The notes beneath the pieces are model-generated. The model was not told the DNA's origin, made no database searches, and worked only from the letters and a program-made list of their open reading frames with translations. Below, one piece after another: positions 2,858-11,785 of a stretch of DNA of 12,758 nucleotides. The DNA is from a virus (Duplodnaviria > Heunggongvirae > Uroviricota > Caudoviricetes), in IMG/VR virus record IMGVR_UViG_2636415500_000004; one strand, written 5' to 3'. How positions within the stretch are numbered: the stretch's first letter is position 1; each line of letters begins with the position of its first letter. The position numbers were made by a program, and so were the translations under genes.

Positions 2858-3138
2858 GAGATTGTGGTGCTTTTTGTGGGAGTCATCCACTTACGCACTT
2901 TGTTTTGCCATGCCAGCAGTTAGCTTCTGCTGTAAAACTATTCATGCAGCAAACCTGCACTTCACCACAATGGTTAGCATACTTTTCCTGATTAAGATTT
3001 TGCCAAATATGCTAGCCATTGTTTCATGTATTGGACCTCCTTACTTTTTATTAAAGAGATCCAATATTCACTACTCTGTCCGTATCTCTACTCAGGCATC
3101 AGCCTTCTTCGTTATCGTATACAGACGAGCGATGAATT

Positions 3139-3354
3139 TTAATCAGTAATGATGACATTTGCTGCTGCAGGACCTTTAGCACCACTCTCTATAGAGAAGG
3201 TAACCTTTTGACCTTCAAATAAGGTTCGATAATTATCATTCTGAATCGCAGAAAAATGCACAAACACATCTTTACTACCATCAACAGGAGAAATAAAGCC
3301 GAAACCTTTATCAGCGTTAAACCATTTTACTAAACCAGTCATTTTATTTGACAT
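3139..3354 (-). CDS. cspB: Cold-shock protein, CspA family (71 aa)
   Basis: [38 protein letters not shown]... with cold-shock domain motifs. Long upstream leader. Divergent from cspF. Confidence 0.93.
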
Positions 3355-3560
3355 TCTACATTCCTTAACTTGAGCCTTTCGGCATAAATGGTTTGCATAA
3401 CAGAAACGACTTCGTACTTAATTGGAGAGACTCAAAGAAGGAATAAGTGAATAACACCTGAAATGAGAACTGCTTTAGTAAACTACTTCGTATATCGTCT
3501 GTTCTTCAAACCGACGCAATCATTAACGCATAGTTGAACATATGAAGCAATGTTTATTTT
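3355..3560 (-). promoter_or_regulatory. cspB promoter and long 5' leader (about 160 nt)
   Basis: Minus strand has GCGTTAATG (candidate -10 at 3522-3527) followed by GGTTTGAAGAACAGACG, resembling the cspA cold-box region GGTTTGACGTACAGA. Confidence 0.55.
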
Positions 3561-10622: not shown

Positions 10623-10841
10623 ATGCAGAAACGAGAACCCGTCATCATCGCGCCAGACTATACCGATGATGAACTTTATGAGTGGATGCGCCAGAAAATT
10701 AATGCAGCGCAGGATCTGAAATGGGCTAATGAAGCCAGGGCTAAGCAGGCTGAAAATCTGTCCGCTCTGGAGCAGGATATCACCAATCTGGAAAAAGCAG
10801 CGGCATTAAGCATTGCCAGAATGATTACATACCCGCGTTAG
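10623..10841 (+). CDS. ydfC: YdfC (72 aa), function unknown
   Basis: MQKREPVIIAPDYTDDELYEWMRQKINAAQ...; RBS GAGGAA 6 nt upstream. Confidence 0.85.
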   Translation: MQKREPVIIAPDYTDDELYEWMRQKINAAQDLKWANEARAKQAENLSALEQDITNLEKAAALSIARMITYPR

Positions 10842-11181
10842 TAGCTAATCAACAAAGCTAAGGTTAGTAATTAAGGAGTTCTCCACGGGTGAGGTGGAGT
10901 GCGTGCGCCGGACACGGGTGCGCATCCGGAACTGACAGTTTACTGAAAGGATATTTCCCTGAAAAGTCAGACCATAACGCGAAAGCGCATGGCGAGGTAG
11001 CTGGTTCATAGATAGCCTGTCGTTAAATTTTCGTCGACCGTGCGCTTCCGGTTGTGGCAACCCGCGAAATGGCGCGGCGGTAAGTATGGCGGGGTTATTC
11101 CTTCCCCGTTGAGGACACCGGGTTGTCAGGTTGACCATACGCTTAAGTGACAACCCCGCTGCAACGCCCTCTGTTATCAAT

Positions 11182-11239
11182 TTTCTGGTGACGTTTGGCG
11201 GTATCAGTTTTACTCCGTGACTGCTCTGCCGCCCTTTTT
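11182..11239 (+). ncRNA. dicF: DicF small regulatory RNA (Hfq-dependent; represses ftsZ and other targets)
   Basis: Sequence UUUCUGGUGACGUUUGGCGGUAUCAGUUUUACUCCGUGACUGCUCUGCCGCCCUUUUU matches DicF as I recall it. Ends in its own terminator hairpin (GGCGG...CCGCC + U5). Lies inside the dicB operon between ydfC and dicB. Confidence 0.85.
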
Positions 11240-11243
11240 AAAG

Positions 11244-11391
11244 TGAATTTTGTGATGTGGTGAATGCGGCTGAGCGCACGCGGAACAGTTAAAACCAAAA
11301 ACAGTGTTATGGGTGGATTCTCTGTATCCGGCGTTAATTGTTAACTGGTTAACGTCACCTGGAGGCACCAGGCACTGCATCACAAAATTCA
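11244..11391 (+). repeat. Perfect 14-bp inverted repeat pair (TGAATTTTGTGATG / CATCACAAAATTCA) forming a long-range stem between dicF and dicB
   Basis: Arms at 11244-11257 and 11378-11391 enclose about 120 nt. The first arm lies about 62-75 nt after the DicF 5' end, consistent with the reported RNase III-dependent longer DicF form. Confidence 0.6.
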
Positions 11392-11408
11392 TTGTTGAGG
11401 ACGCGATA

Positions 11409-11597
11409 ATGAAAACGTTATTACCAAACGTTAATACGTCTGAAGGTTGTTTTGAAATTGGTGTCACTATCAGTAACCCAGTATTTACTGAAGATGCCAT
11501 TAACAAGAGAAAACAAGAACGGGAGCTATTAAATAAAATATGCATTGTTTCAATGCTGGCTCGTTTACGTCTGATGCCAAAAGGATGTGCACAATGA
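11409..11597 (+). CDS. dicB: Cell-division inhibitor DicB (62 aa)
   Basis: MKTLLPNVNTSEGCFEIGVTISNPVFTEDAINKRKQERELLNKICIVSMLARLRLMPKGCAQ; RBS GAGGA 7 nt upstream. The longer track ORF from 11304 is rejected. Confidence 0.92.
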   Translation: MKTLLPNVNTSEGCFEIGVTISNPVFTEDAINKRKQERELLNKICIVSMLARLRLMPKGCAQ

Positions 11598-11785
11598 ATT
11601 CAGCATTTGTGCTTGTTCTGACAGTTTTTCTTGTTTCCGGAGAGCCAGTTGATATTGCAGTCAGTGTTCACAGGACAATGCAGGAGTGTATGACTGCAGC
11701 AACCGAACAGAAAATTCCCGGTAACTGTTACCCGGTCGATAAAGTTATTCACCAGGATAATATCGAAATCCCGGCAGGTCTTTAA
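11594..11785 (+). CDS. ydfD: YdfD (63 aa), small membrane-anchored protein reported to cause lysis when overexpressed
   Basis: MNSAFVLVLTVFLVSGEPVDIAVSVHRTMQECMTAATEQKIPGNCYPVDKVIHQDNIEIPAGL with N-terminal TM segment. ATGA overlap with the dicB stop; RBS AAGGA upstream. Confidence 0.85.
   Translation: MNSAFVLVLTVFLVSGEPVDIAVSVHRTMQECMTAATEQKIPGNCYPVDKVIHQDNIEIPAGL

Follow-up and report, generated by a model that had tools for sequence, protein, structure and literature searches.

RNase III makes a staggered cut that leaves a 2-nt 3′ overhang. Among its described sites, the closest to the locus considered here are the 16S and 23S processing stems of the rRNA operons and the intercistronic sites of T7 and lambda; cuts are also made in 5′ leaders (lambda N, lambda cIII and adhE), where they activate mRNAs or bring about their decay. 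In the dicBF operon of Escherichia coli K-12, a cut by RNase III on the 3′ side of the small RNA DicF has reportedly been known since 1990, the primary mapping being attributed to Faubladier in that year.

DicF occurs as a 53-nt species and as an RNase III-dependent 72-nt species that shares its 5′ end (PMC5069750, PMC9438474). A related arrangement is found at kilR, where the sRNA KilS has been described as derived from the kilR 5′ UTR (PMC8175672). The third system of relevance is the prophage sRNA family STnc100, one copy of which lies 75 nt downstream of stx2B (PMC12370729), and which a preprint relates to PasD, an abundant Hfq-bound sRNA of enteropathogenic E. coli (EPEC) (bioRxiv 10.64898/2026.05.13.724894). 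An earlier, sequence-only reading of the dicF–dicB region had drawn attention to an inverted repeat; what is new here is the structured domain between its arms, which that reading overlooked.

The dicF–dicB locus of the Qin prophage

The window (the whole stretch of 12,758 nt that was analysed) corresponds to the cryptic prophage Qin of E. coli K-12, with 100% identity to K-12 derivatives, and carries dicC, dicA, ydfA, ydfB, ydfC, dicF, dicB and ydfD in this order. MG1655 coordinates equal window coordinates plus 1,638,199, an offset taken from the dicB start. DicF was found with the Rfam covariance model RF00039 at 11183–11234 of the + strand, where the score passes the family gathering threshold of 48 bits, and the MG1655 annotation of dicF covers 1649382–1649434. 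The annotated RNA takes in its terminator hairpin and the first part of the U-tract (11235–11239). The features of the locus are collected in Table 1.

Table 1. Features of the dicF–dicB region (window coordinates)
Feature	Position	Strand	Basis or remark
DicF sRNA, 53 nt	11183..11235	+	RF00039, 76.7 bits; MG1655 b1574
P1 5′ arm, 21 nt	11242..11262	+	predicted fold; contains repeat arm 11244–11257
Putative RNase III cut, 5′ arm	11254..11255	+	72-nt length and annotated 5′ end
Hairpin P2 (GCGGCUGAGCGCACGC)	11266..11281	+	almost invariant
Hairpin P3	11282..11329	+	invariant 5′ side (GGAACAGUUAAA), variable body
Hairpin P4	11330..11356	+	10-bp stem, near-invariant loop GUUAACU
Hairpin P5 (CCUGG-AGGCA-CCAGG)	11358..11372	+	within family signature CACCnGGAGGCACnnGGC
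P1 3′ arm	11373..11393	+	predicted fold; contains repeat arm 11378–11391
Predicted partner cut	11382..11383	+	2-nt 3′ overhang geometry on P1 pairing
dicB Shine–Dalgarno (SD), GAGG	11397–11400	+	sequence; 3 nt beyond P1
dicB CDS, 62 aa	11410..11598	+	Pfam DicB PF05358, E 1.9e-40; MG1655 b1575

That DicF sits within an mRNA between ydfC and dicB agrees with the annotated gene order; between the end of ydfC at 10841 and DicF lie about 340 nt of non-coding RNA. This stretch (10842–11182) is GC-rich and highly structured, and neither Rfam nor the covariance model built in this analysis assigned it to an RNA family. No σ70-like site that might serve as an internal dicB promoter was found on the + strand of 10800–11700, in agreement with PMC10448788.

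Open reading frames across the dicF–dicB spacer are mechanical. One of them, 11304–11597 on the + strand, is a GTG-initiated, in-frame extension of dicB back through P4, P5 and the P1 3′ arm, and is probably untranslated. The wording of a 1988 title by Cam et al. ("translation ... from an in-phase internal start") seems to point to this extension. Elsewhere in the window, two cspA-type thermoregulator leaders on the − strand (228–613, 112.8 bits; 3123–3515, 158.8 bits) are presumably those of Qin cold-shock genes and are unrelated to the dicF–dicB module.

A long helix encloses a predicted four-hairpin domain

The 14-bp inverted repeat noted earlier proved to be perfectly complementary, with 120 nt between the arms 11244–11257 (TGAATTTTGTGATG) and 11378–11391 (CATCACAAAATTCA). 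No other perfect inverted repeat of at least 12 bp whose loop is 300 nt or shorter exists in the 12.7-kb window. When the window was shuffled with dinucleotide composition preserved, a perfect 14-bp inverted repeat of this kind appeared in only 14 of 500 shuffles (mean 0.038 per shuffle). As RNA, and with G-U pairs counted, the repeat extends to a helix of 21 contiguous pairs, termed P1, of which 3 are G-U. P1 was present in both the minimum free energy and the centroid structure whether 165, 238 or 601 nt of context were folded; the fold z-scores were −5.3, −4.5 and −3.7, respectively, and no shuffled sequence folded as well. Together with a weak 7-pair extension beyond P1, the arms gave a duplex energy of −30.4 kcal/mol. 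The second arm had been placed 4 nt before the dicB ribosome-binding site (RBS); the figure needs correction, as the perfect arm ends 5 nt and the extended helix 3 nt from GAGG.

The 110 nt inside P1 are predicted to form a domain of four hairpins, P2 to P5, rather than a loop. GTTAAC-type palindromes had been pointed out in this interval, and they are present as a run at 11333–11354; they are, however, the stem and conserved loop of the covarying RNA hairpin P4, and not evidence for a DNA-level site. An invariant GUUAA near the junction of P2 and P3 (11289–11293) could pair with UUAAC at 11341–11345 in the P4 loop, and the GUUAAC of that loop is self-complementary, so that a pseudoknot or a kissing dimer is allowed. 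The two sides of the possible pseudoknot hardly vary, and the two exceptions (L026 and L135; numbers with L are our locus labels) are not compensatory. More than 60 nt of the domain are invariant, which a plain processing site would not need, and the core must therefore do something beyond what such a site explains. It may be an excised RNA product, a cis-acting sensor or a scaffold on which the processing site folds.

The same module precedes other early genes

A blastn search against phage genomes showed that 11229–11393 is present in phages without dicB, some of which also have no DicF. The module stands before kil in Rac-SA53, Shigella 75/02 Stx, phiSTEC1589, pPE4, PhiR5_2, 683R6, 666R9 and Evi, and in kil/kilR-type phages it ends 10–20 nt upstream of the start codon. 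In P7 and D6, where no DicF-like hairpin is found, it lies in a tRNA cluster and ends ~40 nt before tciA (TerB-like). Other downstream genes encode an Ash/Rha-family regulator or small proteins to which no function is assigned. Because the downstream genes vary in this way, the module is a leader of early, mostly host-directed genes that is not restricted to division inhibitors.

Motif scans of genome and viral collections added copies from Klebsiella, Citrobacter and many E. coli prophages and brought the collection to 78 unique elements with 29 distinct arm pairs. The motif used on genome contigs, CACCNGGAGGCACNNGGC, was too loose, most of its 120 loci being chance matches in GC-rich genomes; about 14 enterobacterial loci were useful.

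A second copy of the module is found in K-12 itself, in the Rac prophage (NC_000913.3 1418239–1418409, corresponding to L253 1740–1910 on the − strand; 168.7 bits with the covariance model of this analysis). It ends 10 nt before the kilR ATG (1418229), and KilS (1418405–1418502) ends at the U-tract where the module starts. KilS–module–kilR therefore mirrors DicF–module–dicB, giving paralogous layouts in one genome: an sRNA that ends at its terminator, the structured module and a cell-division inhibitor gene. The Rac copy differs from that of Qin in having a bulged A and an extra U-G pair in P1 and an SD that lies ~9 nt further away from it. In the literature examined, nothing on RNase III was reported for the KilS–kilR leader.

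Several further arrangements were observed. Members of a third class (L041 1436–1575 on the − strand, L132, L134 and ~20 further viral loci) have a short closing helix and a GC-rich body, score 73 bits with model R1, and adjoin a DicF-like terminator hairpin on its upstream rather than its downstream side. In one prophage class, represented by L138 (4747–5234), DicF (61 bits) and then the module are followed by Rfam matches to isrK and C4 antisense RNA at the start of an Ash/Rha-family ORF, an immI-like cassette behind the same leader. Phage D6 carries a second, weaker copy of the family downstream of tciB (L009 2679–2793, + strand, 40.7 bits). Finally, two records given non-enterobacterial hosts, Aeromonas phage AP1 (98.8% identity) and Actinobacillus phage vB_Apl-pPE4 (86% identity), carry this E. 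coli-type region, with a Rac-like gene order in pPE4, which suggests contamination or a wrong host assignment.

P1 and the internal hairpins covary

For examination of the structure across copies, two alignments were used. In a MAFFT alignment of 25 representatives, which was not fitted to the structure, the five-helix structure paired 90.8% of cells, compared with 33–42% when the partners were slid by 1–3 columns, and 15 pairs showed changes on both sides. None of 500 column shuffles reached the observed covariation score or percentage paired, a control that overstates significance because the sequences are related. In an alignment of 51 distinct sequences to the covariance model, 96.9% of cells paired and 18 pairs changed on both sides; the model was itself built from the MAFFT alignment, so that this second alignment is fitted to the structure and leans towards it. 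Changes on both sides in the 51 sequences affect 10 of the 21 pairs of P1 and 5 of the 10 pairs of P4. The 3-bp base of P3 (11282–11284 with 11327–11329) covaries between A-U, C-G and U-A, and P5 shows a U-A to G-C exchange in 8 sequences. Among single exchanges, L171 differs from the kil type by U-A to C-G and A-U to G-C, L165 shows U-A to G-C and L223 G-U to G-C.

An alignment-independent comparison was made with the outer arms, without the inner 8 bp, which hardly vary between copies. Outer arm sequences are unrelated between the four lineages compared (E. coli, two Klebsiella types and Citrobacter), and their pairing is kept: with their own partner they gave −13 to −18 kcal/mol, against mostly −2 to −8 kcal/mol with a foreign partner, the exceptions being found among related arms. 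Judged from these alignments and arm exchanges, P1 is upheld by compensatory changes in other phages. The covariance model scored 172.7 bits on the + strand and 18.7 bits on the − strand, which fits an RNA of the dicB strand; on the same scores, and with the overlapping reading frames being mechanical, an antisense or coding reading was rejected.

Relation to STnc100 and P1 length by context

In a permissive Rfam scan, 11232–11441 matched the STnc100 model (RF02076) over its full length with 34.4 bits (E 9e-6), which does not reach the gathering threshold of 47. None of nine related loci (L001, L002, L009, L010, L026, L132, L138, L171 and L241) matched STnc100 at gathering, and five canonical copies (L016, L029, L043, L063 and L070) scored 70–88 bits. 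The consensus structure of STnc100 shares its closing helix and the order of its hairpins with the Qin module. Both share a closing helix that begins at GGUGAAU, internal hairpins followed by CACCnGGAGGCACnnGGCACC, and residence in lambdoid or P1-like prophages. They differ at the first hairpin, where the module has P2 (GCGGCU..GCGCACGC) in the place of the canonical CCCCC..GGGG hairpin, in the length of the closing helix (21 bp in Qin, 6–9 bp in canonical copies), and in what follows: the Qin module has no terminator of its own, the dicB SD and AUG coming next. It does not therefore look like a free-standing sRNA, whereas terminators do follow the canonical copies L029, L042, L043, L063 and L126. 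On this match to the family model, the Qin module is a relative of the STnc100/PasD prophage sRNAs that scores below the family threshold.

The length of the closing helix was then compared between contexts. Copies directly before an ORF (dicB, kil, L171, L223/L138, Klebsiella and Citrobacter) have a helix of ~17–22 bp, in some cases with one bulge or with one or two mismatches, and duplex energies of −26 to −36 kcal/mol, apart from one Klebsiella copy at −19.6 kcal/mol. In the canonical STnc100 copies examined (70–88 bits), which mostly have an intrinsic terminator after them, it measures 6–9 bp, and in the third class, upstream of the DicF-like hairpin, ~9 bp. A long P1 is not universal, since in P7, D6 and related copies it is reduced to 9 inner pairs with a weak outer helix. 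Most operon-internal copies lacking their own terminator have the long helix, as expected if an endonuclease has to make their ends.

P1 as the likely site of RNase III processing

Counted from the annotated 5′ end, the 72-nt DicF species would end at 11254 (11183 + 71), the 13th of the 21 positions of the P1 5′ arm; the length is known second-hand, and the end is precise to about ±2 nt. As this is the central part of P1, it is likely that RNase III makes its known cut 3′ of DicF in this helix. The sequence-only reading had expected the longer, RNase III-dependent DicF to end in the first arm, as the computed position bears out. Its broader suggestion that the stem generates DicF applies to the 72-nt species, whose end is inside P1, but not to the 53-nt species, which ends at its own terminator and is thus independent of the stem. 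With 21 contiguous pairs, P1 is long enough for a substrate of E. coli RNase III, which takes about two helical turns (~20 bp or more) of mostly uninterrupted double strand. An rnc-dependent signal between dicF and dicB appears in Table S1 of PMC5371410, where position 1649470 (window 11271, entered under "dicF-dicB" as a known site) has 26 reads in the rnc mutant and none in wild type.

A second long helix is predicted upstream of DicF, formed by 10972–10997 with 11032–11057 (slightly irregular; −41.9 kcal/mol, z −2.6). A 190-nt DicF species has an RNase III-dependent 5′ end at ~11046 (PMC10448788), which falls in the 3′ arm of this second helix and is consistent with RNase III sites that flank DicF on both sides. 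Position, helix length and covariation give good support to a role for P1 in RNase III cleavage, which provides the known cut with a structural explanation.

The reading that we favour, and hold to be probable, is that P1 acts as an RNase III helix by which the dicBF read-through transcript is split into three pieces. P1 would form in read-through transcripts of the operon and close the four-hairpin domain, and a staggered cut near its middle, at ~11254/55 and ~11382/83, would release (i) ydfABC with the 72-nt DicF, whose single-stranded tail would be trimmed to the terminator hairpin, (ii) the ~128-nt domain, 11255–11382, still closed by 8 bp, and (iii) the dicB–ydfD mRNA with a 27-nt leader before the AUG. 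Such a cut would mature DicF from read-through RNA and uncouple the toxic dicB cistron from the RNA upstream of it. We infer from the modelled pairing that RNase III would cut exactly here on both strands and that dicB would be affected, our guess being a modest change in RBS access and faster decay of the spacer.

Compared with the rRNA processing stems and the T7 and lambda sites, the Qin locus has the same long-range helix of about two turns around a folded domain in a polycistronic transcript and a published RNase III-dependent end inside the helix, and a double-strand cut would likewise separate upstream RNA, enclosed RNA and downstream mRNA. Unlike the rRNA stems, for P1 only the end in the 5′ arm is documented, second-hand, and a stable enclosed RNA is conjecture. 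T7 and lambda have simple hairpins, interrupted by internal loops, at their sites, whereas P1 encloses a multi-hairpin domain.

The enclosed domain as a possible RNA product

A different emphasis would place the function in the enclosed RNA: a ~128-nt STnc100/PasD-like molecule (11255–11382), excised by RNase III in the manner of pre-rRNAs and acting in trans. Since the domain has no terminator of its own, P1 would then mainly supply its ends. We regard this as rather unlikely. In its favour, the core aligns to the full STnc100 model with matching architecture (E 9e-6), its canonical relatives are free-standing RNAs with terminators, and PasD is abundant and Hfq-bound in EPEC (bioRxiv 10.64898/2026.05.13.724894). 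A long P1 is found in most terminator-less, operon-internal copies; the copies of P7, D6 and a Salmonella locus adjoin tRNA genes, that is, processed stable RNAs; and the strong invariance of the loop sequences fits a functional RNA. Against this, the position inside the domain at 11271, with 0 wild-type and 26 rnc reads (PMC5371410), suggests that the domain is lost rather than accumulated once cleaved, albeit on low counts and with short RNAs perhaps under-sampled. In addition, the MG1655 annotation has no RNA from the dicF–dicB spacer, the only annotated sRNA at the Rac copy is KilS, upstream of it, and the linker and terminator that follow the canonical core are replaced in Qin by the dicB RBS. 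It is accordingly doubtful, if conceivable, that the dicF–dicB and KilS–kilR spacers encode a third, unrecognised RNA product of ~128 nt that is excised by RNase III.

dicB translation and the possibility of a cis-acting sensor

The stem had also been proposed to control dicB translation, which the structure does not bear out: the SD and AUG lie outside P1, the SD by 3 nt, so that the conserved pairing of SD or start within the helix that marks a sequestering operator is not seen. In the predicted Qin fold, the SD pairs weakly with the U-tract of the DicF terminator through U-G and U-A pairs stacked coaxially on P1, with an SD unpaired probability of 0.03–0.11 in the precursor and 0.22–0.46 after the cut. 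In kil-type copies the U-tract pairs instead with an A-run upstream of the SD, and the SD is not involved; conserved SD occlusion was therefore rejected. As the SD pairing is weak in Qin and replaced by A-run pairing in the kil type, stem-based translational control is possible in Qin but would be neither strong nor conserved. The lambda N, cIII and adhE leaders are comparable in that cleavage of a leader helix close before the RBS gives the downstream cistron a new 5′ end, and possibly altered translation or stability; the dicB SD is, however, outside the helix, and an effect on dicB is conjectural.

These observations also bear on a cis-acting sensor or operator, in which a factor, temperature or a ligand would open or stabilise P1 and in this way determine RBS access or the fate of the mRNA, with RNase III secondary. 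The module always ends near an RBS (3–20 nt from P1 to SD), its invariant junctions and loops resemble those of an aptamer, and the largely paired SD of the predicted Qin precursor becomes freer without the 5′ part. We nevertheless consider such a sensor improbable. The SD and AUG are outside P1, and the SD is held by 4–7 weak U-G/U-A pairs that kil-type copies do not conserve. The downstream genes are heterogeneous (DicB, Kil, a TerB-like protein, an Ash/Rha regulator and small proteins), no ligand or protein candidate is known, and no switch architecture is visible in canonical copies. A riboswitch-like alternation between P1 and a terminator was rejected on the last point, as canonical STnc100 terminators start ~15–35 nt past P1 and do not overlap it. 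A put-like antiterminator of the HK022 type was likewise rejected, since model R1 gave no match in the HK022 genome at E values up to 10.

A feature of the DNA itself (terminal repeats of a mobile element, a boundary of module recombination or a protein-binding palindrome) is very improbable: the homology between dicB-type and kil-type phages does break at the end of the P1 3′ arm, and recombinants exist (L183 and Evi) that combine a core of the Qin type with a 3′ arm of the kil type, but the arms covary through G-U intermediates, the three G-U pairs of Qin would become A-C mismatches in the complementary strand, the model score is confined largely to the + strand, the internal hairpins covary as RNA, and arms that are wholly different between lineages while their pairing is kept are unlike a protein-binding site or a transposase end.

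Implications

Among the prophage systems that block cell division in E. coli, DicF/DicB and KilS/KilR have been studied best. The RNase III cut of 1990 gains a concrete, conserved structural basis, and what was a vague "processing site" becomes a set of defined nucleotides, the P1 arms and the invariant loops, that are open to mutation and compensation. One module precedes dicB, kilR, tciA and other early genes across phages of E. coli, Shigella, Klebsiella and Citrobacter; this leader is now linked to the STnc100/PasD sRNA family and points to an RNA family that is missed at current Rfam thresholds. Should the enclosed domain prove to be an RNA product, division-inhibitor operons would yield two regulatory RNAs and a toxic protein from one transcript, and RNAs of the STnc100 type would have two routes of biogenesis, through their own terminator or through excision by RNase III.
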